Assembly: GCA_008632985.1 (NCBI GenBank)
Contig: QPGO01000029.1
Coordinates: forward strand, 62,001-126,000
Direction: 5' to 3'
Length of the DNA: 64,000 nt
Source of the DNA: Psammoneis japonica
Taxonomy: Eukaryota
A program made the translations under genes and the position numbers. The notes beneath the pieces were generated by a model. That model worked only from the letters and a program-made list of their open reading frames with translations, did no database searches and had not been told where the DNA came from. Every line of letters begins with the position of its first letter. Position 1 is the first letter of the stretch. Below, one piece after another: positions 5,215-63,007 of this stretch.

Positions 5215-5950
5215 TGCTGGGGAACCAAACGGATGGAGCTGGATCAGCAGATTTGCTTCCCCTTTTCCAAAACTGCTGTCTGAACAGCATCACATGAACA
5301 CACGTGTGCTTGCACATGTTCCACACATTGGATGTGCTCGTGCATTGACTGTTGAGGCCATTTTGGCACCAGCTCTGCACTGTGACATGTCATCGGGGCA
5401 TTGCAGCCAAGCGCTGAGGCAGCGGCGGGGGGAATCTGTGATTCTTGGCACCAAGATCATGGTGGGCCAAGCACAAGGAGAACCTTCCTGGTGGGTGGTC
5501 ATGCTCTTGGAGGAGTCACCATGTGAGTGATGGCAGTGTGCAGCAGAAGGCAGCAGATGGACAGATGATGGGGGCGACGATGAGAGGTCACCCAAGCAAG
5601 TTCCCCCAATTGTTCTTGGCAGACAATCAACAGCAATGGTGGGGTCAGTTGTGGTGTCCCAATGCAGGTCAACAATGCTGAAAATTCCCACCCAGCCCAT
5701 CCCTCTGTGCACACAGCACTGGGGAACGAAATGGACAGAACCAGATCCGTGGATTTGTTCCCCTTTTTCTCCAGCTGCCATCTCTCAGCAGCATCAAACG
5801 ACAAACACATGTGTGCTCGTGTGTGTTCCATGCATCAGATGCATTCGTGCATTGATTGTTGAGACCATTTCGGCAGCTCTGCACTGTGACATGTCATCGG
5901 CGTTGTGGCCAAGCCAAGGTGGTGGCAGGGAATCTACTCTACTCTCTCCA
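5215..5950. repeat. Diverged direct repeat, ~230 bp unit (~5215-5440 and ~5715-5950)
   Basis: Both copies share 'gggaac.aaa.gga', 'cgtgcattga.tgttgag.ccattt' and 'cagctctgcactgtgacatgtcatcgg'. Confidence 0.85.
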
Positions 5951-6282
5951 GTGGGGAGAGCTAGCTGCTGCTTTAGCTGCTGGCAGAGACACCGTAGAAG
6001 CAGGCCCATGGCACGATTGACTTCACCAAAACCACATAAAAATTCTTCGCACGCAAAATTTCTGTTTTCCATTGTGAGCAACATCAGAAAATGAACACAT
6101 TGTCGCCCATTTGCGATTGAAGATGTTCAATGTTCAATGTTGCTCACATGCCGCTAAGTGCCCAACACAATGGCCGTCGGGAGCAAGATGGTGCGCACCC
6201 TTCATGCAACATGCTTTCTGGTGTAGACATGTTTGTGGATTCGCATCCTCTCACCTTGTGCTGTTTTTCACAATTGCGGTCT

Positions 6283-7128
6283 TTGAAGGTGACTCTGACA
6301 CTGATTCTTTTCATCTTGGTTGCATCTCATTGAGTCGCAGCATTTCCCCTTGGTGCTGGTGCTTGCGTTGAAGATGCACCTTCAGTTTCCAGACCACACT
6401 TGAACACTCCCACGCAAGACACCATCGCAGGTGGTGGTTTCACTTTGACGTTGGGTGGACAATCGCTGAATGCGGGAACTCCGGCCACGGTCTCGACTGG
6501 AGCGCAGCACACAATCACCATCACCAGGCCTCAACCTTTTCGTGGAGTGTTGGCGAGGCTTTCAGGAGGTGATGCTGGCCTTGATGCATCTGGATTCTTT
6601 TCGTTTGTGGCTGGTGAAATGGATTTGCAGGATGCAGTTGTTTGTCCTGCTGCTGCAAGTGTCCCAGACACGCTCCCTTTTGCATCATCAATGCACACGA
6701 GCCTCTTGGCTCACACATGTTGTTCCGTGCACAGGTTGGTGGTGTCAACTCACACCTCCAACAATGACAAGACAAGCATTTCATTCTTTGTGAATGTTGG
6801 CAAGCCTTCTGCAAATGCGAAGCTTGACCTCAACATTGTCAAAACAGTGTTGCCGTCGATCTTCTGTTGTCCTCAATTTTTGATTGACGCCCAAGATCCG
6901 CCCAGTGCAATGCCCAGTGCTGCGCCATCCACAGTTCCAAGTTTGGCTTCTAGTGATGCAGATTCACCCAGTGCAACGCCTGGTGCTGTGCCATTGGCAG
7001 TCCCAAGTTTGGCTCCCAGTGATGCACCATCAACATCGGGGAAGAAAGGAAAAGGGAAGAAAGGTGAAGGGAAGACAGGAAAAAAGAAGTCGTCTTCAAA
7101 AGGAGGATCACACAATTTCCATGCTTGA
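6283..7128 (+). pseudogene. Pseudogene of a secreted Reeler-like-domain protein with PSxxPS linker and Lys/Gly tail
   Basis: Signal-like 'KVTLTLILFILVASH*VAAFPLGAGAC' with in-frame TGA at 6331-6333; 'QPFRGVLARLSGG'; relic intron 6655-6734 (GCAAGT...CAG); 'THTSNNDKTS'; 'PSAMPSAAPSTVPS'; 'GKKGKGKKG'. No Tyr in the 242-aa frame. Confidence 0.7.
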
Positions 7129-7807
7129 GACTTGTTGTTCGTGCAACGCACTTTGCTGCATGTCTTCAATGCAAGTGGACAAATGCATGTTTCTCTGTGC
7201 AGCAGCTGCAACCATGTCCAAAACCCACCCACCCACCTGCCCATCTGCCGGCCCAGCTGGGCCCACCTGCGTGCAACTCACTGCAGCACAGAGCCCACTT
7301 TTGCTGCTTGCAACAATGAACGCTCGCCAGTGCACGACTCGCAAGGTTTTTGTCATCAATGACAACACACACTCGCCAGTGCATGGCTTGCGGCTCATGT
7401 CCAGTTCGATTGTGCAATGGAGCCAGCGAGAGAAAACAGGGGTCTGCACCAGCAACAACAGCAAACGGATGACAGACGGCGAAGCGCTCAGAACAAACTT
7501 TGTGGTGAAAGGTTTTCCACATGGGAGAGCTTTTCAAGGGGGAACAGTGTGTGCACTGGCAACAATTGTCAGAGTCACTTCCATTTTTAGCCGCAGCAGA
7601 CAAAAAAGAAGGCCAGCATCGTGTGGCACAGTTTTGGCTCTGGGCTGAAATTGCGCGGTGCGCAGATCATCGACCACCGCAACGTTGGACATCAAGGAAC
7701 ATCGAGGGATCACAGAAGCAAGAACTTTCCAATCATCTCAAGTCGTTCATGGTCTGGCGGGAACACAGAATGCGCATGGACCAGACGAGAACGAGACAAG
7801 AGGGATG

Positions 7808-8246
7808 CAGTGCAGCATGCATGCAGACAAAAGGTTGTTTTTGTCACGCCCTTTGTGACATTTAAGCTGTAACACGTCGCCGTGATGCACCAACTCTTGT
7901 CAGCAGCTGCACGTTGCACTCCTCCCCATGTGTCACGCGTCCATGCGGCTCTTTGCTGACGTGTGCTGACACTGCACAGTTTTGGCGGAACAGTGTGGGT
8001 ACGTACGAAGGAACACACAGAACTGCACAGAGTTTTTACGCGCTCGACAGTGATCAACGTTGCTGCAGACAACTCCCACTCAGGGTTTCGAACCCCTGGC
8101 CTCCTGCCTGATGGTCATGCGATGAACCACTCCGCTGTCAATTCACAGTGCAGCATGCGCGCAGACAAAAGGTTATTTTTGTCACGCCCTTTGTGACATT
8201 TAAGCTGCAACACGTTGCCGTGATACATTGGCTCTTATTGGCAGCT
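7808..8246. repeat. ~100 bp direct repeat (~7808-7910 and ~8146-8246)
   Basis: 'cagtgcagcatgc..gcagacaaaaggtt.tttttgtcacgccctttgtgacatttaagctg.aacacg' occurs twice. Confidence 0.9.
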
Positions 8247-8279
8247 GTGTGTTGCAGCGGGAGTTGTTGAAAATTTTTT

Positions 8280-10300
8280 TTGGAGGGACGCGGAGCGTCC
8301 CTGGAGGGACATTTGTCCCGCGGAGCGGGAGGGACGCGCGAAGCGCGCCCCCGAGGGACAGGGTGTCCCTCGGGTCCCTCGCAAATTGGCCGGAAATCGA
8401 CGGGTGGAGCCGGCGACCAGACCGGTCACCCTGCGACGGACGACAGACGGTCCGACCACCGCACTGCCGCCGCTCGCTCGTTGCTGCTGTCTGCCGTTTT
8501 CATTGCCATTGTTGCGATTCGTTGCGATTGGACTTGCATGGCATGAGCTGTTGGCATCATTTGTCCACAATGCCATCTCTCATCAATGAAAAAGATGCTC
8601 CAACTGCACAGGCCCAGGACGGGTTGGAACCACCAGCAACCACTGCAGCAGGCACAATCTTCTACTCGCATCACAGCAATCCATGCAAGAAGGACAAGTC
8701 CAGCGACGAGCCGAGCGACGAGGCAAAAGCGAGTGAGGTGGACCACATCAATCGACTTGCCACTGAGCTTGAGGCCTCCTTTTTGGAAGATTCAAATGAG
8801 GGTGAGGCAGAAGAGCGCGAAGACGAATCCATGATGCTCCAAGCATGCGCAGAAATGCAAGACAAAGCAGACCGAACCAAAGATGGCTGCAAGACGGCGG
8901 TCGCAGCATTTAACGTTTTTGCCAAAAAAAACAGGATGTCCACCAGTCCATCAGTTGGAACGAAAGCATCTGCGTGGAGAGACTCTCACTGTGCCGAACT
9001 GCAGCAAATTGATGAGGCAATTCTGCACTTTCTTAATGGAGCACAAGATTGAACGCAAAGGTGCTCGCAAGGGGACTCACTGGAAGCCCAAGTCGCAGGC
9101 ACAATGTGATTCTGGTGTGTGCATGGTGCTCAAGAAGAAGTTGGGGCATGGAGCACTTTACAAAAAATCCGAGCATGACGAACTCAACAAATCTCTAAAA
9201 GCAAGGGCCTGCGCACGCTGTTTGCAAGTGAGGAGAAGGAGCATTTCAATGGCAGCAATCGTCCTCAAGCAAAGGATGATGACAACTACATGGCTTGGTG
9301 GGACAGGGCTTGCAAGACATTGAAATCCGTGTCTCTCAAGCACATTTTTAATTTGGTTGAGCAGCACAACAAAGCCGTGCCCTTGTGCAACAAGCTGGTT
9401 GATGAAAAGAAGGCAGCATCAACTCGCAGCTTCAAAGCCAGCACAAGTGAGGAGAGGAAGGTTATTGATGGAAAATCCAAATTGGAAAACAAAGTGGGAG
9501 CTGTTGTTTCGGCATTGGAAAAAACTGCAAACGATGATGAACAAGATTGAGAAAGAGGGCAAGAGGGCGGCGGCTTAAAAACTCCAGTCACATTGACAGC
9601 AGATTAGCATGCTATTTGCATCACTAGTGTTTGTTGTAAGAGTCTCAAATTTAACAACCTAACATGCTCCATCATGCGACACCACTGGCAGTTTCGGATC
9701 GACGGCAGATTAGCTTGCTGTTTGCACCACTGGCATTCATTGTAGGAGTCTTAATTTTAACTACTGCATCATATGCTCTATCACATGTCACACGACATAC
9801 GATGGTGTGACACTACCAATAGTTTCGGATCGACCATTGGGAATCGAAATGCTGCACAACCTGCATCCTTCGTACACGCTTTCCCTAGAGTGCGCGCTTC
9901 TCCAAATTTGAAATTGCTGCATGGTTTCAAACAAAACAGAAATCCATAATTCACAATGACACACAATGGAATCAAAGTCATTGGATGTATTGTACAATTT
10001 ACGTTAAGAATGAAATAAGCAACGGGAAAATCGGTGAAAGTATCATTGAGATATCACGCCGTAAAGTGGGACACCGGCGGCTCGCATCATTGTGCTGCTG
10101 CAGTTTGCTGCGTGCAAATCAAATTGACTTGGTAAAACTTTGTGAGGGTTTCGTGTCCCTTGGAAATTGTGCGTGTTGTGTGCGATTGATTATGTGTCTG
10201 TGTATGGCACTTGTATGCGTGTCGTGTCCCTCAGGAATTGGGTGTACTGTCCCTCTGAGTCGGTCTAACACAGAAAATGTGAGCGAGGTGAGGGACACCT
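8280..10300 (+). mobile_element. Probable degenerate, internally deleted mobile element (possibly Crypton-like) bracketed by GAGGGAC/GTCCCTC motif clusters
   Basis: Motif clusters at 8282-8381 and 10224-10298. Broken ORF ~8570-9550 has an acidic N-terminus, then 'DRTKDGCKTAVAAFNVF' and 'LMRQFCTFLMEHK..KSQAQCDSGV', which resemble a recombinase core-binding region. No catalytic domain visible. Confidence 0.4.
9595..9835. repeat. Diverged tandem duplication, ~105-130 bp unit
   Basis: 'gac.gcagattagc.tgct.tttgca.cact' and 'agtttcggatcgac' each occur twice. Confidence 0.8.
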
Positions 10301-25350: not shown

Positions 25351-26374
25351 TATGGGGCTACGACTAGCAAAAAATGCAATATGATATAATCATTGACATA
25401 TAAAAAATATTGATATGATATATAAATGACGGATATACAAGAATGCTGAATGACTGCATATGACTTTTTGTGTAAGATTTGTACTGTTCTACGCACTTAA
25501 CGAAGAAAATGCTGAGGCAATACATAGAATGACTCTTCATAAGTACGAATTCAAATGAAGGTCATGCCCACGCCCGCCACGCCATTTAATCAAACATACG
25601 AGCATATATGAAGTATTATTCAAAGACGGAGTTGACAAACGGAGTATAGACGGTTGAATGTGTAACATTACAAAAACATCTAAATAGTTGAAAAGTATGG
25701 ACTTTTGTGAGACATTTGTATATGTAACACATGTAAAACCTGCTATTTGTTTTGGCAAGAACCGTTATTATTAAATAAAGGGGTACATAAAATCCAATAC
25801 AAAATGTCTGACCGGTATAACAGGTACGTTTATGCTAGTCGTAGCCTCATATCCGCCCTCACCCCCGTGGATGTATGGGGCTACGACTAGCAAAAAATGC
25901 AATATGATATAATCATTGACATATAAAAAACATTGATATGATATATTAATGACGTATATACAAGAATGCTGAATGACTGCATATGACTTTTTGTGTAAGA
26001 TTTGTACTGTTCTACGCACTTAACGAAGAAAATGCTGAGGCAATACATAGAATGACTCTTCATAAGTACGAATTCAAATGAAGGTCATGCCCACGCCCGC
26101 CACGCCATTTAATCAAACATACGAGCATATATGAAGTATTATTCAAAGACGGAGTTGACAAACGGAGTATCGACGGTTGAATGTGTAACATTACAAAAAC
26201 ATCTAAATAGTTGAAAAGTATGGACTTTTGTGAGACATTTGTATATGTAGCACATGTAAAACCTGCTATTTGTTTTGGCAAAAACCGTTATCGTTAAATA
26301 AAGGGGTACATAAAATCCAATACAAAATGTCTGACCGGTATAACAGGTACGTTTATGCTAGTCGTAGCCTCATA
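25351..26374. mobile_element. Two tandem, near-identical ~500 bp AT-rich MITE copies (period 523 bp)
   Basis: Each unit begins TATGGGGCTACGACTAGC and ends GCTAGTCGTAGCCTCATA (18-bp TIR, 1 mismatch). The copies are separated by a ~20 bp spacer and differ by only a few substitutions. Confidence 0.9.
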
Positions 26375-26529
26375 TCCTTAATATTATCCGCGACTTCCGA
26401 GTCGTGGGAACGCAATCTGGAAATCCTGCTCGAGACAAGACGATGCCGCCCGGGATCGACCATCGACACAAAAAGCAAACGCAGCATCGGTTATCTAACC
26501 TTTTGAAAGCAACGAAAACAAGGCAAAGC

Positions 26530-38800: not shown

Positions 38801-41019
38801 CCATTTGGTGAGTCCAGTCAACCTGATTCTTGGGTGAGCTTCTTTTGAGGGCACATTTTCTTGTTTGTGCCACAATGGACTGCTTGTCGTCACCTCCATT
38901 GACTGAATTTTCTCTGAGTGATGGTGTCATTGACTTCCCAGCAACCCATCTTGATTGGAAGAAACAAGTTTTTCTGTGTCCTTGCAAGTGCTTCTCAGGT
39001 CACTGGGGCTGTGTTTTGTGAAGAAAGTTGACATCTGGGTTGCACACAGGGGAATCTTCTCTCATTTTGCTGAGCCAGCATGTGGTCTGCTCTTTTTGGC
39101 TCTCTTGATCCAAAGTTGTCCTCAGAGGTTGGGAAAGACTTGCTCATGTGGACTCCTTGCTGCTGTGGTGCCATCTTCTCATGTCAGATGCCTGCTGGAC
39201 TTGGACACTCAACATGTGTGGCTCTGCTGCTTTAGTCTTGGTGTCCCTTTGTGGGCCATGCAATCAAACAGACATTGGCGCTGATGAGGACAAGGTGGGC
39301 AGGTGTGTTCTGTGTTGCACGGCATTTGCATGATCTGTTCACTGGCAACTTGTCACAGACAATGAGATTGGCTCAGCTCCCCTCCCCAAAAATGGAAATG
39401 ATTGTCATTGCAGAAGTGTCAAGAGCCTTGTGGGCACAGCCATCTCAGGCTTTGTGGCTGAAGCAGTGGCAAGTCTCACCAAAAGATCAGAGATCCATTG
39501 CCTGTGCAATTGATGGCATGAAATGAATCAAACGCAAAGTTCTGAGTTGCTGCCAGCTGTGCCCTCACCCACATTAAAAACTTCTTGATGTGAGGATTCT
39601 TGACCATGCCCTGCACTCAATGCAGCACAAAACACTCAGACCATCAATTGCAGTGAAGGAATTGCAGGGGCTGTGGATTTGGAAATCAGGTTAATTGGGA
39701 GCAAATGGCTGTGCAGCAGATGCTGCAAATGATTTGGCTGAAAGGAGCTGCACTGTTGACAAGAAAACAACAGACAGAAGAGCTGCCAGTTGGAAGCCCC
39801 GCTCCACTCCATTCCACACATGAACAGCAGCAGCTGCCCATTGTTCTGATGAAAACTTTGAAATCAGTCCCCTGTGCAGTCTAAAAAGAACAATCTGGTC
39901 ATGGGAGGCAAGTCAATTGGAAATTTTCATGTCAAGAAAAGAGTGGGTGTTTTTTAAGGCCAAGTTGCAGCCACACCTTTCTTGCAAGCCCCTGAGCAAC
40001 TTTGCAAAAGTGCAAGCAAGCAAGCTGAGAATTTCTGGACATTTTGTCATGATGTTCTGCCTTGTCTCTCCAGTCATGGTGGCCAAGCTGTGCACAAAGG
40101 TGTCCAAGCAAGCGTTGGTGTCAAGAGTGCACAAGAGGGACATGAAACACATTTGTGGTTCCATGTCAGACATGAGCGTTGTTGCTGGCGGGACCTTTCT
40201 CACAGCAGCGCTGAAGTTTGAAGGCTTTGCCAACAAGCAGTGCCCTCCAGCAGGGGATGCAGTTGCACCATGCTGAGAGGATGTTTTTGGCTTTGTCCAG
40301 AGGTGTGAAACTCTGTGAAATGCATCACCTCAGGGTCATTTGTGAAGGGAGCTGTGGGTCAAGGCATGCAGCACCCTCTTTTTGCTGGTGCCATCATGCC
40401 CAACTTGTGTCCAAACAGCATGCAAAGCTGCCACCCACCCAGAAAATGAGAGCATTTCTAAATCCAGTCCAGCATCCTCCACACTCCTGTTTGCTTGCAA
40501 CTCAATTGTGAGAGCCTTGCTGGAAAAATGATGAGATGAGTGCCATTGCAAGGTCCAGAGTCCAGAACAAATTGCAGCAAAGCCAAGAGCTTGCAGCACA
40601 AAGGAGCCATGGTGACAGTGCATTTGAACATGCCACAGATGAGCCACTGTGAAAAAAGGCAGAGTGAGGAAGACATCAAAAAATCTCAAGCTTGTTCCAA
40701 GAAAACCTCAGACAATTGTTTCTTGCTGTCTTGGCAGGACCCATGTTCTCTTCATTCTTTGCTTCATTGTCAAATTGCAGAGCTCTGCTGCTGCACTGCT
40801 GGCCAAAAACACCACATCTGGTGGAAGGCATTTTGCAAAAGCAACTCACTGTGGCAGCGGCTGAGAAAAAGCTGCGCAAGATGAAATCAATGCCATTGAC
40901 TGTTTCTGCATTTGCTGCAGTTTGTGGATGAGCAAGGCATGGGTCAGACAGAGCTGTGGTGAAGAAGCCAAGGTCATGGCAGTGGCATCAAAGGCAGCAA
41001 GAAGTGGCCAGCATTGTCC

Positions 41020-41825
41020 CCGAACCATGGTCTTGCTGCAGCAGCAATGCACAATGTGGTTGTTTTGTCAGTCAATTTTTCAACAGCAAGCTGCATCCAA
41101 AAACCATGGCAAATGTGCAGCAGCGAGCAATGTTGTCATTGTTTTTGTGCATGGTTGTCTTTGCATGTGTGCAGACACATGTCTGCCAATGGACTTTGCA
41201 GCCACCTGTGAGTCTCAACAAAAAAACTTGACAGACATGCAGCAATGAGCAATGTGCTTGTTTTTGTTGTGCATGGTTGTCTTTGTGTGTGCATGCACAT
41301 GTCCACCAGTGGACTTTGCACCAGCAAGCCACATCCAAAACCATGGCAGATGTGCAGCAGTGGGCAATGCTGTCATTGTTTTTGTGTGTGGTTGTCTTTG
41401 TGTGCACAGACACATGTCTGCCAATGGACTTTGCACCAGCAAGTTGCACCCCAAACAACGTGGCGGACATGCAGCAATGAGCAACACAGTTGGTTTTGTG
41501 CATTGTTGTCTTTGTGCATGCAAACACATGTCTGCCCATGGACTTTGCACTGGCAAACCACATCCAAAAAGCCATGGCAGACATGCAGCAATTGGCAATG
41601 TGGCTGTTTTTGTGCATGGTTGTCTTTGTGTGTGCAGACACACATCTTCCAATGAACTTTGCACTGGCAAGCCACATCAAGAAAACCATGGCAGACATGC
41701 AACAATGTGCGGTGTAGTTGTTTTTGTGCATGGTTGTCTTTGTGTGTGCAAGCACATGTCTGCCGGTGGACTTTGCACCAGCAAACCACATCCAGAAATC
41801 ATGGCAGACATGGCCATGTTTTGTA
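41020..41825. repeat. Tandem array, ~6-7 copies of a ~115-120 bp unit
   Basis: Unit approximately 'aaccatggcagacatgcagcaat..gtttttgtgcatggttgtctttgtgtgtgcagacacatgtctgccaatggactttgcaccagcaagccacatccaa', recurring near 41101, 41225, 41339, 41457, 41570, 41684 and 41797. Confidence 0.95.
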
Positions 41826-44065
41826 GATGTGTTTTGAGCAATTGTTTTCTTTCCAGCAGTTGTGATGCTGCTTTGGGAAACATGGTTGTGAATGGAGCCA
41901 TCTTGTGGTCCCTTGCCAAATGAAGACATGCTGCAGACTGTTTTTCTGTGCCCTTTTGTCAAACACACTGGTGCTGGGCTTGAGGTCATTCTTTGGAGAC
42001 CAGTGTGTGTTTGCGGTGTTGACGGCAGCAGCAACTGAAGTGGTGAGTGAGAAATTGTGCCAGCACCATCATGACCAGTCAAAAATTCCTTCAGTTGGTG
42101 CAACAGCGATTGATGTGGGAGCCACCAACATTGGCACCTGACTTGTTCCAGACTTGGGTGGTGCGCACATGCCCCTTTTTGCAAAAACAACAAACAAATG
42201 TTTTGCACTTTGTCAAACACTGCACACATTTTATTGGATTGATCACATTGGTGGCTGAAAAGCAAAATGAACAGAATAAATTCAAACAAACAAACAAACA
42301 AACAAACAGCCAAACCGGCCATGGCTTTCAGCAACCACGATGGCCCACTTTCTTCAGCCTTGTGGAAAATTTGATGTCATGACAAGGACAGCCGCATTTG
42401 ATGCAGTCTGTGGCATCAACAACAACAGTGAAAATGCTTGTCACAGGCTGCAGCACTGCACAACAAGACCAAATCTGTCAGCACCAACAATTGAGCCTCA
42501 ATTCACTCACAATTTGCCTCTGAGGACCATTTCTTTTCCAGCACCATGCACATGATTTCCTCCATTCCATTGACGGATTCAAGTGCATCAGTTGTTTGTG
42601 CCCTTTGAAGAGTGAAAAATGGTCCAAAGATGACGCCATTGCGTGGGCTGAGCTTCACTTCTTCTTGCATCTTCCGAAACTTGTTGACAAACAAATGTTT
42701 TGTTCAATCCGTTGAGAGCAACCTTGCATGGGCGCATTGAGACAAAACATTGATTGTGTCATGTCAAAGAGTTTGTTCATGTGCAAAAATGACAATTTAC
42801 ATTGTTCCACACACATTCAGACACTTGCAAATCGCTCATTGGAAACCAAGCTCTGCCTCATCTTGCAGCGCAATTCAGCCAATGACAAGTTGGTCCATCC
42901 ACAGTTTTGGATGCATGGTTGCATGCACAAAACCTTTCTGTGTGCACCCATGACAGTGCATTTGAAAATTGGTGTGTTTCAACTGTTGAAAATGGTGCCG
43001 CAAGTGTGGACCATGCGTTTCATGTGAAAAGGGGCATTTTTTTTGTGCATGAGCACACCCAAGTCTGGAACAAGTCATCTTTTCTCTGCAGGCTGCCAAC
43101 TGCTGCTGCCAGCTCAAGGGTGGCATGATTTGCCATTCACCCATTGAACCAAGTCACAACATGTGCAAGCTTCTTGAGACAAATGCTGATGGGCTGTGTC
43201 AGCGGAGGCAGTTTCTGGGAATGGCGCAGTCACGGACAAGCTGGCCATGCATTTGACCCAACAACCAGATCAACATTTGACAGCACATCTCCTCTCATGT
43301 CACTGGAAAATGTCACCCACAGATTGTGACAGCACTCTCCCATGGATTTTGGAGATCCACAAAATCCGAGACAATGGGGCTGCAACAAAAATCCAATTTT
43401 GGTCATGGCCAAAGCCCAAAATGGCTGGCTGTCACCCATTGCGCAACAGCCACAACCCATGCATCATTGGCTGCACCCCACACACAGTGCCAGCCATGAC
43501 CCATTGCAGGTCAGGTGTTTGGTTGTCATTTTTGCCCAATGTTCCCTCCTGTGAGCATGCAGCCCATGTGCGCAACTCTGCAATCCGTGAGTGGCAGCTT
43601 GTGCTCTCATTGCATGCCTTGGCTGTTTTGGACACACGGTGTGAAACAGTGTGTAAATGTTTTTGGTGTTTTGTTTCTAACAGCATTGTTTTGCACATTG
43701 GAGACAACTTGGTGACCAAACATGTTGTGCCTTCACCCCCCAAAACTCTTGTCAACCCCTTCATCTCCACACTTCTTGCACGGGGCACTGCATGATCTGA
43801 GCACAAGTCACGAGATTGCCTCCACTGATTCTCTTGCAATTGACACAGAGCAACATGAGCCCAAGGCATTGCCAGGCATTGCCAACAATGATTGTCTGAG
43901 GTTTGAAACTGTGCCATCAAGAAAGAGGCCAACCACACTGCCATTTGAGAGCTGCTGCTTGAAAAACACCATTTGTGGAGGAGTTGGCTGCAAGAGGCTG
44001 ATGTGTTGTTGAAGCCGTGCCTTTTGAGCCAATGCACAAAACATCTGGTGCAAGACAAAAAACTT

Positions 44066-44320: not shown

Positions 44321-44717
44321 AGCTTGTCTGCTTCCATGTTGAGAACCCCACAATGTGGGAGAATTGGCAGCAAACAGCAAACAGCATGGCATTCAAAAAG
44401 CAAGCAAGGCGCTGAACAGTGGGTGAACTAATCAGCCCTGCCATGCCAGCCATTGGACATGCGACTCTCATGCATTCCCCCCTTCTAGAGAGCCATGCAA
44501 CCAAACGGATGGCGTGTGTTCAAATTAGATGGACACTGCACGAATTTATAGAGTTAAAAATCAACACAAATTTGCTTTGTTACACTCATAACCAGCTGCA
44601 CAAGAAACCCAAACCTGGAAAATAAATCATAATATGCAACATGGCAAAAAGCCTGATTGAAAGGAATCGTTGTCTGGACCCATTCAGCAAAAATTCGCGT
44701 TTTGCTGAAACGTGAAA

Positions 44718-47700
44718 TTAAACACTGTCTTGTATGTCACCCTCCTCGTCAGTCTCCACTTGCTCTAGGTTTTTTGCAAGCAGGCGCTGCTGCGGGGCAA
44801 GACCGGGACTGTTTTCAATGGACGTGCGATCGAACAAATTGTTCAAGCGTTGCGCTGAATTTTTCAAAGGACATTCATTCCTGTTCAACGCGCGAAATAC
44901 TCTGAACTGTTGAGAGAAATCTCTGTTCTCCCACGCGTCAACAAAATCTGCAATAACCTGGGATGGTGAAAGTGGGTACGAAACGCCACTGTTTGCAGCG
45001 TTCAAAAGAGCCGCAACTGCGTGACGCCCGAGTCGTTTTTTGCGATTACGACCTTTTCGTCTCAAGACTTGCAAAAGTGTTTTTCCACGAAAGGCGTTGA
45101 TGCCAAACGCCTCCTCGAACAGAGTGTCCCTGCTGTATAACAACCAATCGCCAAAATTTTTGTTTCGACGCCAGAAAAGAGGACGGCAACCATGCTCCAC
45201 GCCACTTACACTGAAACTGCTCGGGGCGCTGCTCGGGGCGCCACTTGGGGCGGCGCTGCTTGAAGCGGCATTAAAAGTACTGGGGGCGCTACTTGGAGCG
45301 CTACTCGGGGCGGCACTGGGGGCGGTACTCGGGGCGGTGCTTGGAGCGCTGCTCGGGGCGGTGCTCGGGGGATTAGTCACCTCGCACTCATCCGGAACGC
45401 CGTTCGAATTCTCGTCGAGCGATGTTCCATTGGCGATGTCTTCTTCATCGGAGACTCCATTCGAGTTGCAATCAAAATCGCACTCATCGGGGATTCCGTT
45501 ATTGTTGAAATCAAAAGAGTTTCCTGTTGCAATATCGACATCGTCTGGTACACTGTTGTTGTTGCAATCGGGATCGCATTCGTCGGGTACTAAGTTCGCA
45601 TTTATGTCCAAGCTAGCCCCAGACGCAATGTCACATGAATCAATGGAACCGTTTCCATTGCAGTCAATTGACGCGTCGTCTGCAATTTCGCAGCTATCGA
45701 CAATGCCGTTCGAATTGCAGTCCACTTCGCACTCGTCAGGAATTCCGTTAGTGTTGCAGTCGTTTGAAGTGCCGTTTGCAACATCTTCATCGTCAGGAAC
45801 ACCGTTGCTATTGCAATCTTCGAATGCGGCAACCAGAAGGCTGGCAAAGGAATTGAAAAGTTCAGCACCCACAATGGTACACGTGATGCCGTGGATGCCT
45901 TCTCCGACGACTGAGAAAGCTTGAGTCTTCGAAATGGATGTTCCTGAAGCCACGGTCCCCAAGTCAAACTCCAAGAAAGTAGTGCCGCCATCAAAGGCGA
46001 TCATATCAGAAGTTGCGAGGTACATCTTGACGTCTGTGTATGAGTTGGGCAAGGCATTATCGAATGTGCATGTAACAGAGCTGGCTTCGCCAATTGACAA
46101 GTCGGAGCCGCTTTCAACCTCCAGGACGGGAGTGGCAGGAATTAACACAGTTGGGATCGTGTCCGCTTCAAAGAACGATTCTAACTCGCCATTGTCCAAC
46201 CAAGTTGCTGCAACGGAAAAAGAAGTTTCAATCACGTCCGTGGCACCAAGAATTGACACATAGTTTGCTAAGGGGACGTTCAACTCAATCACTACAACTT
46301 CACCGGGAGAGATGACTCGGTTCTCGTCGGAGATGGCAAGACTGCCAAGTTCGCTTCCGTCATACGTGATCCCATTGCAGTTCATCACGATTCGAGCGTT
46401 CAATACAAACGGGCCTTCGTTTGATAACTCTGCAGAAAGAATAATGCTGTCACTTACAGCAATTTCTGCGGGGGCAACAAAATCCACCACGGCTGAGGCG
46501 TTATTGACCAGCCGACGACGATTGGTTTCTGGAGTTTTGTAGGACGATGTGACGTCGTTTCTTCCGTCGCTCCCAGGTTCCTTGGTGGAAATGTCGCGGC
46601 CAACCATTGTAGTGTCCAATTTTCGCGGCACCAACATACCAGACTCGTTTTCCGTCAAATGCAGCACGTCAGCATCGACTTCTGTTGAGACAAAGTCCAC
46701 GTCGAAATCGCCTCCGCTTCTGGCCTTGATGGCGGCGTGTGGGGCCGGTCCAATCTTGTAGGTCGCGTCTACGGCATTCCAAGCGTCGTTGATTCGGCAA
46801 TCGTTCCACACGTGATAGTTCCTTTTATGGTTTCCGAGCGAGCAGAACAATGAACGAATTTGTGAGCATACTAAAAATCGTGAATTCCGCTTCTCGAATG
46901 ACCCAAGTAACTTTCAAGAAACGTACCAAATACTAGGTCTTCGGATAAGATATCCAGCAAAATTATAATGGTATTCAACGGTGAAATCAAATTTATTGCT
47001 GTCGTCGTCATAAGCGGATGCGTAGTTTGTAACTGGACGAGATGGGATGCCCACGCCGCGCAACAAGGAGTTCAACAGCCCTGCAAACACCCAACATTGC
47101 GCATATTTGACGGTCGAAAAACCGGACGAAACGTATTGGTCGAAAATTTCGTTACTTCCACTCCAGATCCACGGAAATTTACCTCCGGCGTAAAAGCCCG
47201 GCAAGTCGTCTGTGTCGTCATTACTGTGCCAACGCCCTTCCATCATGTCTCCTGCTCCCTTGGAAAAAAGCTGAGAAATACTTTTCGCAGAAGACCGTTT
47301 TGCCGAGCTTTGACCATCTAGGAGCTTCAATATCGACTTGATTGCATTCTCGGTGAACTGCGCGAAGCGCCATTCTTTCGGAGCGCTTATTTGCGTTTGC
47401 CAAATCTTGCCATTCTCTTCCATTACGTACTCATTGCGCAGACTGTCTTGGGCGACGTAAACCTCGTCTGTGCTTGAAAACGGGTTGAACAATAGAACAA
47501 TCTTGTTGGGAAAAGTCTCTTCATCAGCGGCTTCGCCGACGCCGCGATCTTTAACGATCACTTTGAACTCCTCGTACTCTCCAATTGCGGCATTGGGTGG
47601 AATATTGATTTCCATCTCGACCGCCTTGGAGCCGTCGGCGTTCTCTTGCAACGAAGAGGTTCTAGCAGACCATTGATCGGGAGGAACCGGCCCAACACTA

Positions 47701-48674
47701 TCACTAAGAATGTCAATGACGGTCTCGGCTCCGTCGAAAAGGTGGCGGGCTTGAAACTTGATTTCATGGCAGGTAGGGCCGTACTCTTTGGAAAGACGGA
47801 GCTTGACTTTGAACGTTGTGGCACGGCGCAGAGCAAAGTAATTTGCGATCTTGTTTGTGTTGTGGTCCTTCTTGTTGTCGTCCTCAAGCGTGTCAAGCAG
47901 AATGATCACGTCTTCGTCCAGACCTCCAATCTTTAAAGAGTAATCACTCAAAGCACCTATGCCTCCAGTGACAAAGAACGTGCCGGGCTCGAATCCGTCA
48001 CAAGCAGCACCTTGCCAATAGTCGATTGAAACGTATTTCGGCCCATTAAGCTCGGGACCAAAGGGGGATGCATCGCCCGTGCCAGAATAGAACTGGAGTT
48101 TGGCGTTTCGGCGGACGTACAAGCCGTCGAAGCTTCCGACGCCGAGGGCCGCCAATGGATAGGCGAACGCCGTGCCCGATCCTTCCTGGAACTAAGGAAA
48201 GAGGACGTTAAAAACAAAGAACAATATGTCAATTGTACATTCAACATGCCATCTTGCGCGCAAAATTGTTGAGCTGCGATCACCACGTACCTTCCAGAAC
48301 CTGTTGTCCGTGTAGCAAGGGTTAAACGGACGGTCTTTTGTATTACGGAGATGACGAGCAGAACAGTAAAGTGAGTCGGTGCGCACGTCGAAATGAAAAG
48401 ACGACCCCGCCAAAAGGCTTCATAACACACCATACCATTCTTCGGCTACACAGGGTTCCGACGCGATGCACAGGCTCTGGCGGAGGATGCGATCCGACGA
48501 AGCCACTATCCAGTCTGGGTCGTCCACCGTGGTCTGGACGAGGCCACACGCTCCAAGGTTCGCGACGCCCGCATTTTCGGTCTCTGCTTTGGGGTCGTAG
48601 GGAGACAGTTGCGCGTCGGAACAGCGACAAAACAACGCCAACAAGGCTGGCAGTGAGTAAAACTTGAACATCAT
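44718..48674 (-). CDS. Secreted transglutaminase (animal TGM/F13A-type core) fused to DCNxNGxPD repeats, a PSxA linker and a C-terminal domain; 4 exons
   Basis: Signal peptide; 'IVLLFNPF', 'LRNEYVMEENGKI', 'WRFAQF'; catalytic 'KYAQCWVFAGLLNSLLRGVGIPSRPVTNY'. Removing intron 46822-46926 gives 'SIWNYHVWND..WNAVDAT', completing a Cys-His-Asp triad. Two beta-barrel-like regions follow, then the repeats. Confidence 0.9.
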
Positions 48675-48729: not shown

Positions 48730-51152
48730 TACACACGTCTTCAGAGGGTTCGGATTGGGACCACTGTAAAGGTGGTACGAGGGAAAAAATGGCGGGAAAA
48801 TTTTCTGGCAGGATTTCTACACGTTTCTACACAAATCGATGGTCTCACTTCGATCTCTCCCGATCAGAATGCTGCTTTGCCTTCAACCAAGTGTCCTTCA
48901 CTGCTGTATATAGATAAAGTGTACTTAATCGACAGATTTAACGTTTGTTCCTTACGATAATACGGTGATAGTAACGGAATTGTCCAGGTATATGAAATGG
49001 TAAGAATTTTTGTCTTGGAAGTGCTCTTATAGCCCACAATTTGCCCAATAATCATAAGTGAAATGAAGAAGAGGCAATAAATAAATGTAATGAGTAATTA
49101 TTGCTCGACACAATCATGTGGTTCGTCAACAACAGCATGATGTGCTTTTCCATTCACTCTTCATTGAATGAGAAAGAGGTCAACACGCTGCCGACTATTC
49201 GAGAGCCACTGCTACTTGAAAAACACCATTATTTCCTTGTCGAGGAAAAGAAGGACCAACATGAACCATTGGAAGGTGCTCCTTGTTTGGGGTTTGCGCA
49301 TGTGCAAGATGGACCAGTTGACGGGCGGGTCCGTTGTCAGCTGTGGTTCTTTCTTGTGTGCTCGTGTGTCTTGTGCTTCACGCAGCAGAGATGAACGATT
49401 CAATGTTTTTGCACTTCCCTTCATTTGCACTTTCTCTGGCTGCAGAAACTGACATTGTCACGACAATCCTTGTGCTCCGAGATCTTGGGTTCCGCCCAGA
49501 ACTCCTTTTTTGTTTGCTTTGAGCTGCCGGCAGTCTGTCCTTGACTGCTTGAATTAGATGCAATTAACAAAAACAAGTTGCAAGCATCACTTTCACGTGA
49601 GCCATCAAAAAGAAGTTAATCTGACGCACCGGTGCAGCAGGCTGCAATGTCTGTGCAGTCATTTGCTGGGAGCCTTTTTGCAAAAAGCAGCGATCGCGAC
49701 ATGCAGCGACAAATTGCACGAATGCTTTGCTGTCTTTGCGGTGAGGGTGGATTTAAAAAAGTCTGGTTTTGTTTGTTTGTGCACTGCCCCCTGAAGGCAC
49801 AAATTGGCCCTGAATGTCTCCAGGGCAGCACGCGTCAAAGACCACATGTGAAAGGGCTTCCTCCAGGCGCTCCAGGGAGGGGGCCCAAAACACCAAATCT
49901 GTTCACACACATCTTCAGAGGGTTCAGATTGTGACCCACTCTCACCCATCACGGAGAGCGACAGCCATCACCAACTGCACCTGCCACGGATGCAGTCGAT
50001 GCAAGGGGCACAAGGTAAAAAAATGGCGGGAAAATTTCTGGTGGGATTTCTGCACGTTTCTACACAAATCGATGGTCTCACTTCGATCTCTCCCAGAATG
50101 CTGCTTTGCCTTCATGCTGCTTTCCTACAGCACTGGAAAGAAACTGAAAAGATTCAACATTTGTTCCTTACGATGATGGCATGATAGCAAAGGAATTGTC
50201 CAGGCATTTAAAATGTTTAAGTGTTTTTGTCTTGGAAGTGATCTCATGGCCCAGCCATTGCCCAATCCCAAGTGAAATGAAGAAGAGGCGACAAATGAAA
50301 TGATTGTTGCTTGACACACGCATCGATTGTGCCCAACGCTGTCAGGTGTTCCGCAGCACAGTGGCACGTGCTTTCCCTTTCCCATGCACTCTTCATTGAG
50401 CGAGAAAGATGAGGTCACCATGCTTCATTCGAGAGCCACTCTAGAGACTGCCGGCACTTGAAAAACACCATTGTCTCCTTGTCAAGGAAAAGAAGGACCA
50501 ACGGTTGGAAGGTGCTCCTCGTTTGGGGTTTGCAAGTGACTGGGATGAACCAGTTGTGACGGGTTTGTTGTCAACAAACCGTTGTTCGTTCTTGTGTGCT
50601 CGTGTGCCTTGTGCGCAAGCAACAGATGAACGATTTTCAATTTTCAATGTTTTTGCACTTCCCTTCATTTGCGCTTTCCCTAGCTACAGAGACTGACACT
50701 GTCATGATCTTCCTTGTACTCCAAGACCTTGGGTTAAGCCCGAAACTCCTTTTGTTCACTTTTGAGCTACCCACACCGGTAGCTAGCTATCTTAGATATG
50801 ACGTCTGTCCTTGACCGCTTGAATTAGATGCAATCAACAGAAGTAAGTTGTCTGCATCACTTTCCCATCGAAAAGAAGTCAACCTGACGTACGGTAGGCT
50901 ACAGTGTTTGTACAGTCGTTTGGGAGTCTTTTTGCAAAAAGCAGCGGTCCCGATGTATAATAACAAATTGCACGAAAGCTTTCTTTGCGGCGAGGGTGGA
51001 TTTGAAAAAATCCGGTTTTGTTTGTTTGTGCACAGCCCCCCAAAGGCAAAAATTAAATGTCGCCAGGGCAGAATGCGACAAAGACCACATGCGAAAGGGC
51101 CTCCTTTAGGCGTTCCAGGGAGGGCGCCCGAAATACCCGATCGAACATCTTC
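48730..51152. repeat. Diverged ~1.2 kb tandem duplication (copy 1 ~48730-49904, copy 2 ~49905-51152)
   Basis: Collinear anchors in both copies: 'tcttcagagggttc', 'aaaaaatggcgggaaaattt', 'cacgtttctacacaaatcgatggtctcacttcgatctctccc', 'gagagccact', 'gcttgaattagatgcaat', 'aagaccacatg.gaaaggg'. Confidence 0.95.
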
Positions 51153-51439
51153 AGGTCGACGTCGTTCCACCGAAGGTGAAGCGACTTTCCAAAGCACTGC
51201 GAGCAGTCGGAAGTCCCGTCATCCAAATCTTCCACTTGTTCGTCCCAATCTTGAAACGCCATGTCGGTATCTTCTGTAATGTAATCGCCATTCTTGACGG
51301 TGAGATTCTCGTCGATCACGAGAAAGACCCCGGTTGTCGTTTCGCGTACTTCGATCCAGCGGTCTTGCGAGGGCGACTCATCATCCGCGCGACGAGAAAG
51401 CTTGTCAACCTGAACAGAGATGCGATGCGTGTCGCTCAT
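50800..51439 (-). pseudogene. Disrupted hypothetical gene, divergent from NOL10, running into the duplicated segment
   Basis: Coding-like 128-aa ORF (51439-51053). The frame continues past the stop ('GDI*FLPLGG..RAICYYTSGPLLFAKRLP'), and a more decayed homolog lies in copy 1. Confidence 0.4.
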
Positions 51440-59995: not shown

Positions 59996-60459
59996 TATTT
60001 TTCGATTTTGATGGCCAGGTTCTTTCCTTCTGACTGGATTATGATCCAACCCGTTGTTGTTGTTGACAAGCTTCGATGTTCCCTCGATTACGTGGTTTTA
60101 GCTTCGTGGTGGGAGTTTGTGAGGGCAAACACGACATCAACGCGCATGACAGCGCACCTGTTCGGAATTCTCCGTGGCCGTCGTAGAAAATGTATGAGGA
60201 TTGTACATATAAGTATACTAAAGATCTATTGAATTCCCGCGCTTCTCCAACTTGTTTTCCGGGTCCTTTCATTGTCGTCAGCGAACCTGGGCTATTCTCG
60301 TTTTGGCGCAACATCACCACGTCAGCGTGACAAGAGTATGACGCCCTACGAAGCTCTATACTACAGGATGTGTAAGTAAAAAAGTTATGGAGAAGTACAG
60401 CTGCAACGTGTCAGAAGCAAAGGTACGGTCCGGGTTCGTAGAAGTGACTTTCAGCACAA

Positions 60460-60594
60460 GGACCCTCTCTCTACTCTAGGCTACTGTAGGGCCCCTACAG
60501 TATCTCTACTCTACTAGAGCTAGCTACTGACTCTAGTAGCTACTACTCTAGAGAGAGTAGCTACTAGCTAGCTACTAGCTAGCTTACTCTCTAC

Positions 60595-60636
<42 letters not shown>

Positions 60637-60800
60637 CTGCAGCTAGCTGGAGAGCACCTCTCTCCCCTCTGCTCTAGAGCGAGCAGCTACAGTGGCTACA
60701 ATCATACTCTATTCTAGCTAGAGCGAATCTGCCATACTAGGGCCTACCAGTAGCTAGAGTAGAAGTAGATAGAGCTACCTATTTACATAGAGTAAGAGAG
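60460..60800. repeat. CTAG/AGCT-rich low-complexity patch containing a (GA)n microsatellite
   Basis: Dense 'ctagag', 'tagct' and 'ctact' words; (GA)n at ~60596-60633. Confidence 0.85.
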
Positions 60801-61273
60801 CAAGTTGCCCCAGTCGAAGCTAGAAGAAATGAACAATTCAGGTGACCACTTTTTCCAGGCACAAAGCTCAATGATTCCAGCAGCATGTACCTATAAAGTT
60901 TCTTTGCTCTCAGAAAAGAGATCTCCAGTGAGCTAGATTACTAGGCCTTTGAACCTATTGGATAGAAAAAGGCAAGACAAAATGAAGGAAGCAGTCAATT
61001 CATCAGAGCCTGACCAAACGAATGGACATAGAGATGCTCAAGTAAGCATTCTCCCATGTTGATTGATGTTGCCTCTGCAGCTCTGATTCCTTCTATCCAG
61101 ATCTTGATGCCTACTTGACTCAAGTGCAACTGTTGCGGTTTCTTGGCTGACAAATGTACAGCACAGTTCCAATCCTGACATATCGTTTCGCTCTTCTTGA
61201 TACTATTATTATAACATTGCATTCAGCTAGTTTGTTCTATTTGCTACTAAAGATTCATTGAAACATGTCGTCA

Positions 61274-63007
61274 CTACTTGTCCTCCTTAGAGTCGTCATC
61301 TGAATCATCTTGGAGTTCATATTCAACAAATGACTGACCTCGCTCGTCAGTCCCTTCACTCTTCATAACATCTGTGTCAATGATGCTTTCCAAATCAAGG
61401 TCTCCGTCGTGCATATGTTGCTCGCTTTCGCGCTTGGCTTCCTGTTCCTGTTTTGCAGTTTCTATCTCAAACCGCAGTTGCTCCTCCAGATTGCTAATCT
61501 TTTGTTCCATTTGATTAATAACCCAGTCAATGTCTTCTTCTTTGTATCGTTCTTGTGGTGGCAACTTCAACAGGTCGGCATCTGCTTCTGGATCTAGTCC
61601 TTCCGACCACTCTTCATCGTCAGAGTCATACTTAGCGGCCAATGCGTCGTAGTCCAAACGTTCGGATGTATCAAAGCTATCCTCGGCTTGGAATTCGACA
61701 TCAGCTTGTTGCTTGTCAGCATCAGGTTCACCTTGAGTCGCCGCCAACATTGCCTTCTCCTTTGCCTCTCGTTTCTTTTCCTTTTCTGAGCGAAGGTCTG
61801 GTTTGGGCATCTTCCCAATGACAACTGGATAGGGTTGGTACTGAGTGTAAACGGTTCGTATAGGATCCTTTAGACCAACCGCGGCTCCAAGTGACGGGCC
61901 CTGATACAAGGATTGATCCTTGCCGCCTTCTGAATCTTCGTCATCACTAGCATCGGCGGCGGTGCTGGATTCAAACTCAAAGAACTTCGTGGGGTCACTA
62001 AGCAGTTTTTCGGCACCTTCCTTTTCCATGGCAGCTGTGTTTGCTAGCACCTGCACGTTGGGCACAGGATTAGCTTTAGGAAGATCAAACTGTGATTTTG
62101 TAGCGAAATTGTCTTGCAACATCTCCTTCTGTTTCTCGAGAAGCACCCGCCTTCCTTCGTCTCGAACCATGGCTCGCAATTTCGCCTTGTCTTCCAACTC
62201 TTTCCTTTCGGCCAACCTCTCCTCTGTCCAGAAGTCCTCGTCTAGATTTGCTTCAAAATAGGCCTTCTCAAGCAACTCTTCAAGCAAAAGCTCCCGTTGG
62301 GTAGGATAAGTTTTATCCATGTGCCATGTATGGGATTCGAACTGCCAGAACCCAGCATCGTCGCTTGGCATGGGAGCTCCGATTACTCCGTTTCGACGGC
62401 CCCACAACATTTGTTCAGCTTCAGGAGAAAAGGCTTTCTCAACTTCTTCTGCAGTGGTTAACCACAACGGTGCCTCTTCCTCTAGCTCATCGACAACCAA
62501 TTGTCGAGCTTTCCTAAAGCGTTCATTCCTCGCATCACGATTCTCTTGTGCAACACGCAGCTCCTCTTGGAACTCTTCGTGGCGTTTCTGTTGAATTTCG
62601 CGTTGACGAATGGCGTTCTGAGCCGACCGAATGTTCTTTAACCTCTGCCTCTCCAACCTGAGCCTCGTTTGTTCTTGTCGTTTGGCTTTTTCTTCCGCCT
62701 CGTCTGCAGCTCGTTGCGCTGCTACTTCAGCTGCATACTGTTTGCGGAGTTTAGATACCTCCTTTTTGTATGCCGCTCGTCGAACAGCAAAGTCCGTCGC
62801 TCTCTTTCTCGCAGCTCTGGCAGTCTCTTCCTGCAATATTGCAGAGTTCGAATAAAGCCTCTTAGTGTTCAGAAACGATTTTACATCCTCTTCGATTGAT
62901 CCGCACCGTGCTACACAATAGGCTGGGTGGAAGTATCGACCAACCACAGCGCTGCGGCGAGTTGAACTTAGAGAAAGAGAGCGCAAGACGATTGCAGTAT
63001 TTGACAT
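61274..63007 (-). CDS. Mitochondrial-targeted coiled-coil/acidic protein; N-terminal half weakly resembles mitoribosomal mS26
   Basis: 577-aa ORF with Ser/Arg-rich presequence, long charged helix 'YKKEVSKLRKQYAAEV..LEEEAPLWLTTAEEVEKA' and acidic C-terminal half. The mS26 similarity is by eye only. Confidence 0.8.
   Translation of the reverse strand: MSNTAIVLRSLSLSSTRRSAVVGRYFHPAYCVARCGSIEEDVKSFLNTKRLYSNSAILQEETARAARKRATDFAVRRAAYKKEVSKLRKQYAAEVAAQRAADEAEEKAKRQEQTRLRLERQRLKNIRSAQNAIRQREIQQKRHEEFQEELRVAQENRDARNERFRKARQLVVDELEEEAPLWLTTAEEVEKAFSPEAEQMLWGRRNGVIGAPMPSDDAGFWQFESHTWHMDKTYPTQRELLLEELLEKAYFEANLDEDFWTEERLAERKELEDKAKLRAMVRDEGRRVLLEKQKEMLQDNFATKSQFDLPKANPVPNVQVLANTAAMEKEGAEKLLSDPTKFFEFESSTAADASDDEDSEGGKDQSLYQGPSLGAAVGLKDPIRTVYTQYQPYPVVIGKMPKPDLRSEKEKKREAKEKAMLAATQGEPDADKQQADVEFQAEDSFDTSERLDYDALAAKYDSDDEEWSEGLDPEADADLLKLPPQERYKEEDIDWVINQMEQKISNLEEQLRFEIETAKQEQEAKRESEQHMHDGDLDLESIIDTDVMKSEGTDERGQSFVEYELQDDSDDDSKEDK

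Follow-up and report, generated by a model that had tools for sequence, protein, structure and literature searches.

The genome of Psammoneis japonica contains a tandem duplication in which the dinucleotide TA appears to have been lost to TG or CA according to position rather than copy. The duplication lies in a 64,000-nucleotide stretch of contig QPGO01000029.1 (positions 62001-126000; hereafter the window), taken from an assembly of 91.4 Mb and 597 contigs (GCA_008632985.1). Its copies are arranged head-to-tail and measure about 1.2 kb each; their alignment has 1104 columns at 84% identity, plus 235 gap columns. The duplication is real, and an independent 1251-bp contig of run X1 crosses its junction (48832-50082). 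The copies and the zones of differing TA content are given below in window positions, with dinucleotide contents as observed/expected ratios.

48730-49903, plus strand: copy 1 of the tandem unit (ends approximate)
49904-51154, plus strand: copy 2 of the tandem unit (ends approximate; junction spanned by the X1 contig)
48730-49235, no strand: left spared zone, 32 TA in 506 bp (0.71), reaching to a point some 560 bp away from the left gene's probable start codon
49236-50680, no strand: central TA-erased zone across the junction, 12 TA in 1445 bp (0.12), with CG at 0.61 and CA+TG at 1.52
50681-51155, no strand: right spared zone, 22 TA in 475 bp (0.65), comprising the last 33 codons of gene B and about 370 bp beyond its stop

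TA was present in one copy only at 39 aligned sites, and the other copy had TG or CA at 33 of these (binomial p = 6e-11 versus 1/3); five further sites had TA in both copies. Copy 1 kept TA at 19 of the 33 sites, 16 of which fell no further than 500 bp into the unit. Copy 2 kept it at 14, and 13 of these lay past offset 700, counted from the unit start. The two sets differed in position (Mann-Whitney p = 1.6e-4), and the best split fitted 29 of the 33 sites (permutation p = 7e-5, with the choice of split allowed for). This agrees with the first-pass annotation of this DNA, which had described a tandem pair with roles reversed between its ends and had quoted motifs that we found within a few bases of where it put them. 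An even spread of TA loss along both copies, which it had named as speaking against its reading, was not seen by the same permutation test. All four exceptions to the split were in TTAA, the context in which the annotation had also noticed counter-examples, and TTAA accounted for 5 of the 12 TA remaining in the central zone. Differences between CG and TG/CA (12 versus 15 sites) showed the same lean in a weaker form (p = 0.014). Apart from TA and CG, the copies had diverged evenly along the unit, by about 10% in each of its three parts (36/371, 17/162, and 36/361).

The annotation had also proposed a mutated zone of about 49.1-50.7 kb that fades towards genes. The zone is central and straddles the junction as proposed, but its start is better placed at 49236, and its edges look step-like more than fading. 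The bounding by genes held, in that the right end of copy 2 is the tail of an intact conserved gene. Offsets 500-707 of the unit were without informative sites.

The unit consists of three parts: the left 380 bp or so of a miniature inverted-repeat transposable element (MITE), the 3' end of a paralog of a GT2/FkbM-methyltransferase gene, and the 3' region of gene B with its last 33 codons. These parts and the left neighbour are listed here; L-numbers denote loci of the same assembly that were compared with the tandem pair.

48767-49150, plus strand: in copy 1, the left part of a Kolobok-like MITE relative that lacks its right end, matching 11 other loci of the assembly
50002-50350, plus strand: the same MITE part in copy 2, with most TA lost
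49170-49507, plus strand: 3' end and downstream DNA of the GT2/FkbM-methyltransferase gene paralog in copy 1, 68% identical to L016
50400-50768, plus strand: GT2/FkbM fragment in copy 2, 66% identical to L016 over 50457-50768 (start placed by eye)
51053-51439, minus strand: gene B, intact, 128 aa, of an unnamed family, its last 33 codons within copy 2
49806-49900, minus strand: dead gene B tail in copy 1, with the TAA stop turned into a Gln codon, Leu CTA into CTG, and Val GTA into GTG
46914-48674, minus strand: left neighbour, a transglutaminase-like gene (PF00868, PF01841; open reading frame 46914-48191, start near 48674 by eye)

A CATCTTCAG-like word of 9 bp occurs three times, at 48736-44, 49910-18, and 51146-54. 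It was ruled out as the target-site duplication of a Mutator-like (MULE-like) element, since the element has its end at 48767 and its flanks are of the TTAA type. Copy 2 alone carries a 27-bp TA-rich insertion (50773-50800) with five intact TA inside the right spared zone.

The relatives of gene B number 121, and the 30 aligned sequences all terminate at ...PGDI. The TAA stop of gene B is thus ancestral, and the right end of copy 2 belongs to an intact gene. No name for the family was found in Pfam, NCBIfam or Atlas, and a weak search scored no longer forms. The peptide RAICYYT, which the annotation had taken as a relic, is in the gene B frame but lies 3' of the conserved stop, past the point where the relatives end, and it was rejected as protein. 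Two TA-free relics of gene B (L047 and L048) lie 6 kb apart on another contig, C9.

No third full or allelic copy of the unit was found in the assembly, which yielded partial outgroups only: the MITE family, L016 (a largely intact relative of the GT2/FkbM paralog on contig C158, with PF05050 and PF00535), a relic at 43.9 kb of the window, the gene B relics L047 and L048, and the gene B protein family. Polarity was read by eye, and TA in an outgroup, or three states at a site, was counted as TA loss. This gave a direction for 16 of the 33 sites, 12 of which were TA losses, all in the centre, so that TG/CA is not ancestral at most polarised sites; the annotation had asked for such a polarisation. 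TA was kept in copy 1 at 48767, 48776, 48818, 48972, 48989, 49078, and 49213, and in copy 2 at 49437, 49441, 49654, 49811, and 49891. These loss sites separate perfectly, the seven kept by copy 1 at offset 483 or less and the five kept by copy 2 at 707 or more, which is 1 in 792 orderings (calculated by hand). The remaining four were TA gains, at 48939, 49028, and 49030 in copy 1 and at 50209 in copy 2. The motif gattTAa at 48939, listed in the annotation as a loss in copy 2, therefore looks like a gain in copy 1. The gain at 50209 is one of the TTAA exceptions to the split, which suggests that those may be new TA persisting in the most resistant context. In mid-unit, some five TA present in L016 have disappeared with an identical outcome in both copies (by eye), so loss there probably predates the duplication.

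The MITE family, whose members are about 620 bp long with TTAA flanks and inverted ends of about 21 bp, settled the direction of the process. The member L021 keeps 28/28 TA and is 89-94% identical to eight dispersed sisters. Among seven sisters, 22 of its 28 TA sites show both TG and CA, and both states at one site cannot arise by one-way gain. Together, the polarised sites and these three-state sites support the direction from TA to TG/CA. The same comparison bears on the left spared zone: site 48809 is CA in copy 1, TG in copy 2, and TA in L021, which means that at least one TA of this zone was mutated.

For the mutation spectrum we took L021 as reference and counted changes per strand-site, skipping two shared non-TA sites and leaving out the rows L006/L023 (twin of L004/L022) and L043. 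A to G changes occurred at 161 of 370 strand-sites after T (0.435), compared with 13/902 after A, 4/492 after C, and 6/591 after G (0.014, 0.008, and 0.010; 23/1985 pooled). Within TpA, the rate depended on the 3' base (TAT 0.60, TAC 0.47, TAG 0.43, and TAA 0.26). C to T changes reached 55/462 at CpG (0.119) and stayed below 0.009 in other contexts, CpA being at background level (4/506). The MITE copies have thus lost 87% of their TA and about 24% of their CG, at a background change of about 1%. Same-strand clustering of neighbouring TA losses was not found (74/152; null 80.7 ± 4.4). An AA signature of the Pol eta type was likewise not found, AA being not significantly above CA and GA (p = 0.30); the AAT context was raised (9/230, p = 6e-4). 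The lack of same-strand runs and of a significant AA excess fits independent single-site events, and the Pol eta pattern fits poorly. A spectrum of the twin loci L040/L041 was set aside as not interpretable, with transversions dominating (39/47). One site escaped: TTTCTACACAAA (48822-48833 and 50055-50066, MITE offset about 66) kept its TA in both tandem copies and in 7/7 mutated MITE copies while about 87% of other MITE TA was lost, and a protein footprint possibly shielded it.

Loci away from the pair were then compared by surroundings. In L025, diagnostic TA was kept at 5/7 sites beside the TA-rich flank and at 1/18 beyond. Older relatives (78-88% identical to L021) kept 12/17 TA when both flanks were TA-normal, 2/59 when both were TA-poor, and 1/25 with one flank of each kind. 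Two further tandem pairs of the window served as controls. A pair inside a TA-free block had no TA in either copy and four TG/CA discordances, and a 98%-identical 0.5-kb pair outside the blocks (25351-26377) had 52 TA in common and one TA/CA difference. The latter pair is AT-rich and young; its eight core differences include one TA/CA, one TA/CG, and one TAA/TAG, and these three all have the C/G form in the second copy, possibly an early stage. Relative to run X1, CpG transitions were seen at 49661 and 49952, that is, at 2/52 central CG and 0/484 flanking CG (p = 0.009); these are two events only and may be alleles or strain differences. Since the MITEs lost 87% of their TA at about 1% change, the outer zones of the pair, which are 10% diverged, would have been spared for most of their history. 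The reciprocal pattern, the step in L025, and the retention of TA by old relatives in TA-normal surroundings support the claim of the annotation that position rather than copy decides TA loss.

The window carries eukaryotic genes (NOL10, alpha-adaptin, sorting nexin, and synaptobrevin) and three TA-poor blocks, at 1-8.9, 18.7-19.9, and 36.8-44.2 kb. Compared with the rest of the window, the blocks had observed/expected values of 0.05 versus 0.58 for TA, 0.26 versus 1.02 for CG, and 1.83 versus 1.16 for CA/TG. TTAA was the context with the highest TA survival in them (0.37 of normal). At 5500-8900, TA is nearly gone, yet CG recovers to 0.5-0.9 of expectation, which uncouples the loss of TA from that of CG at this block edge. 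The opposite of the TA-free blocks is seen at 60000-61500, where CG is at 0.36-0.61 and TA at 0.93-1.11. In the large block lies a copy of the L016 GT2/FkbM gene that is broken and free of TA (40967-43974). This relic overlaps the FkbM fragment of the unit by about 60 bp (43920-43973 versus 49171-49230), as though some 5 kb with two genes on it had come to divide a single gene. Run X1 and the window disagree at the large block's edge in one CG/TG swap and two TG/CA swaps (43460, 43468-9, and 43867-8). The listed X1 letter differences include none in the open reading frames of 44.7-48.2 or 51.7-53 kb and one in gene B (51062). The contigs of run X2 (30 million letters, not recorded as RNA) cover only a 731-aa open reading frame (44651-46983) and 777 bp of copy 2 (50254-51030). 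A search for RNA runs listed none, which speaks neither for nor against expression.

With these observations at hand, we propose that the locus probably combines an old tandem duplication bounded by microhomology with a process that turns A into G at TpA in silent, CpG-decaying DNA and that is excluded near genes. The proposal starts from what was observed: the pattern and its direction, the TpA specificity, the absent same-strand runs, the gene at the right edge, and the co-located CpG decay. The duplication would have doubled the stretch from the transglutaminase-like gene to the end of gene B. Silent, CG-methylated chromatin would form away from genes, as the CpG decay suggests, and a recruited activity would work on both strands and change the A of TpA into G, which yields TG or CA. 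Genes or bound proteins would stop this activity and exempt a few hundred bases around genes, so that each copy would lose TA only far from a gene, i.e., in its inner half. The central zone is accordingly read as a probable methylated or heterochromatic domain, judging by its CpG decay and the two recent central CpG transitions, and the neighbouring genes as presumably active and setting the zone edges. DNMT5 is described as methylating transposons in Phaeodactylum in the accessible part of a published account (PMC9998398).

As for the chemistry, we prefer deamination of adenine to inosine, which is read as G, by a chromatin-recruited deaminase, a choice that we hold with about even confidence; as alternatives we consider error-prone repair synthesis and modification of thymine. 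The assembly contains C5 methyltransferase frames of full length as well as frames with a deaminase domain. A search for TET/JBP gave no match, and the control queries were silent as well. A 491-aa stop-to-stop frame on the minus strand of L063 (319-1791) contains a zinc-deaminase domain and, after it, a 2-oxoglutarate (2OG)-Fe(II) oxygenase domain, which may represent a fusion or two genes. [quoted passage not shown] Such an editor would erase TpA from any silenced DNA, duplicates of host genes included, and would come to a halt over a few hundred bases where it meets active genes or bound proteins.

Several findings weigh against the proposal. Gains make up 4 of the 16 polarised sites, 17 of the 33 sites are without polarity, and the outgroups are 60-80% identical and were judged by eye. 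A step within a copy was seen in L025 only. The family rows are partly non-independent (L039 and L042 are one copy, and L030/L035 are twin-like). The distance from the end of an open reading frame to the zone edge varies, from about 130 bp (L016) through 290, 370, and 560 to 1000 bp, which implies a spared zone without fixed width. The empty offsets 500-707 let a single switch point in a block one unit long fit too. Finally, the deaminase matches are universal enzyme types, none of them tied to the process.

Protection could replace targeting if the TpA lesion were widespread and transcription-coupled or open-chromatin repair cleared it near genes, with no recruited mutator. Lesions would then build up in silent DNA by default, and the map would look the same. 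The spared zones do match a probable promoter and a coding tail with its 3' region, one TA of the left spared zone was mutated (48809), and the survival of TTTCTACACAAA in all mutated MITE copies and both tandem copies suggests shielding by a bound protein. We nevertheless regard this as unlikely: the tandem pair at 25.4 kb, which is not annotated as genic, retains nearly all of its TA, and the TpA process of the alga Bigelowiella natans was limited to two regions and to some lines and was read by its authors as regulated, in the accessible text of their preprint (Mettrop et al., bioRxiv 10.64898/2026.01.13.699255). A trigger by homology, in which pairing nucleated a mark in the middle of the pair and the mutator followed, would resemble the DIM-5/DIM-2 branch of RIP. 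DIM-2-mediated RIP in Neurospora hits mainly the linker of close direct repeats, along with some 150 bp at the repeat ends next to it (10.1101/115501; 10.1101/344036, as far as the available portions go), and diatoms carry a RID-related DNMT4 whose function is described as not known in the accessible part of PMC9998398. Against this, the 98%-identical tandem pair is almost intact, L021 keeps all its TA despite near-identical sisters, and the hypermutated Bigelowiella region derived from a nucleocytoplasmic large DNA virus (NCLDV) is single-copy in the text available (Mettrop et al.). Both spared repeats may be young, but older relatives were spared too. The identical mid-unit losses in both copies suggest an onset before the duplication. 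We regard a homology trigger as improbable.

TA loss could still be copy-specific if the inner block (the right of copy 1 with the left of copy 2) were a single copy in circular permutation, which acquired its mutations elsewhere or in circular form before recombining in at some point between offsets 500 and 707. The erased zone is 1035-1450 bp long, a range that includes one unit length, no informative site contradicts a single switch, and the ends carry the 9-bp microhomology. This history becomes very improbable in view of the recent CpG transitions, which occur in the centre in place, the even background divergence along the unit, the steps at loci without a tandem partner (L025 and L016), and site 48809, mutated independently in both copies. 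Purifying selection on the outer halves (promoter, gene tail, and 3' untranslated region) against a uniform mutator can point to the conserved coding tail at the right end of copy 2, with TA in its stop codon. Two of the three coding TA kept in that tail are synonymous (CTA Leu and GTA Val), and the 3' region of copy 2 kept its TA despite several deletions and the 27-bp insertion; selection therefore does not explain the spared ends. The left zone, moreover, is MITE-derived. With TA and CG set aside, the ends have diverged no less than the rest, which largely refutes selection and leaves it hardly any probability. The reverse polarity, with TG/CA ancestral and a RIP-like change from CpA to TpA creating TA at the flanks, can be read from 48939, 49028, and 49030, which are CA or TG in all aligned family members, TA-retaining ones included. 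As the main process it is refuted by the 12 losses among 16 polarised sites, by the gene B stop, which must be TAA, by the three-state sites, which one-way gain cannot produce, and by the ordinary TA content of the flanks (0.65-0.71 versus 0.58 in the normal DNA of the window). We give it next to no credence, except as ordinary background C to T change.

The locus carries its own reciprocal control, in that one sequence keeps or loses its TA by location, in both directions, within 2.4 kb. This narrows the targeting to chromatin or transcription state. The choice of targets is left open in the accessible text of Mettrop et al., and the edges of the present locus are exact, at about 49.24 and 50.68 kb. 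Should the agent indeed be a deaminase that works on chromosomal DNA, it would represent a novel type of genome defence and would be relevant to base editing. Since TAA and TAG stops and Tyr codons are erased, the dating of repeats and the prediction of genes are affected in such genomes.

Among known systems, the WA mutagenesis by Pol eta in somatic hypermutation gives A to G changes with TA as the hottest and AA as the second context, in same-strand patches. The present process differs in that AA is not significantly raised (apart from AAT) and same-strand runs are absent. RIP acts before meiosis, depends on RID or DIM-2, and in its RID branch mostly changes CpA to TpA. The RID branch in Neurospora crassa resembles our locus in its dense, dinucleotide-specific transitions in repeated DNA, but it changes C to T, the opposite polarity to the A to G change found here, where C to T at CpA is at background. 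It also mutates both copies alike along their full length (3163 versus 3153 mutations in the available portions of 10.1101/115501 and 10.1101/344036), whereas here each copy is half spared. The statement of the annotation that the pattern is unlike RIP thus stands for the RID branch only, as the DIM-5/DIM-2 branch likewise places most of its mutations in the middle of direct repeats that lie close together (same sources). That branch is chromatin-guided, and the likeness to our locus in this respect depends on the domain that we infer. It differs in being homology-dependent and in changing C to T through a methyltransferase, whereas here near-identical repeats can be spared.

Deamination of 5-methylcytosine in the DNMT5-methylated transposons of diatoms (PMC9998398, in its accessible part) shares with our data the change from CG into TG/CA, which here has the zone and the positional lean of the TA loss, but it cannot remove TA, which in the MITEs is lost far more than CG (87% versus about 24%). 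The MITE itself is like the non-autonomous Kolobok elements, which have TTAA flanks and short inverted repeats according to the portions available of PMC9587614; copies of the present family are flanked by TTAA or its TA-mutated forms, with GTAA at 48766 in the window. By the Kolobok criterion of 5'-RR...YY-3' ends, L026, L029, and L032 carry GG...CC, and the left end is CG in L021, L022, and L025. A Kolobok transposase did not turn up and was not sought; the window carries the left MITE part only.

TpA hypermutation has been described for integrated NCLDV and virophage DNA in B. natans (Mettrop et al.), and this preprint of 2026, on viral inserts in an unrelated alga, was the sole report of TpA-restricted A to G hypermutation found in our literature search. 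Among the papers that the search listed, none was on TpA erasure in diatoms; it left most subscription journals uncovered, and a paper on this genome may describe it. As far as the accessible text goes, the two systems share the confinement of A to G and T to C changes to TpA, giving TpG or CpA (here 161/370 after T versus 23/1985 elsewhere, and 33/39 pair differences), the direction from TA to TG/CA (here at 22/28 three-state and 12/16 polarised sites), and regional clustering (here TA at 0.05 in the blocks versus 0.58, and 0.12 in the pair centre). The preprint further reports that single-copy DNA can be mutated, that TpA-poor clusters are rich in transposon domains, and that the de novo rate is raised about 1000-fold in only some lines; an adenosine deaminase is proposed there without demonstration. 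The words "diatom", "CpG", and "boundar" are absent from its main text. The Bigelowiella process, so described, was measured de novo, in a pair of viral regions where many TpA remain, whereas ours is near saturation. Its targets are viral or foreign, unlike the MITE part and the relics of host-type genes found here, and our locus adds CpG decay alongside and a 1.4-kb zone edged a few hundred bases from genes. What is new here is therefore the lineage, the targeting of a MITE and of host-gene relics, the near-saturation, the coupling to CpG decay, and the kilobase zones edged by genes.

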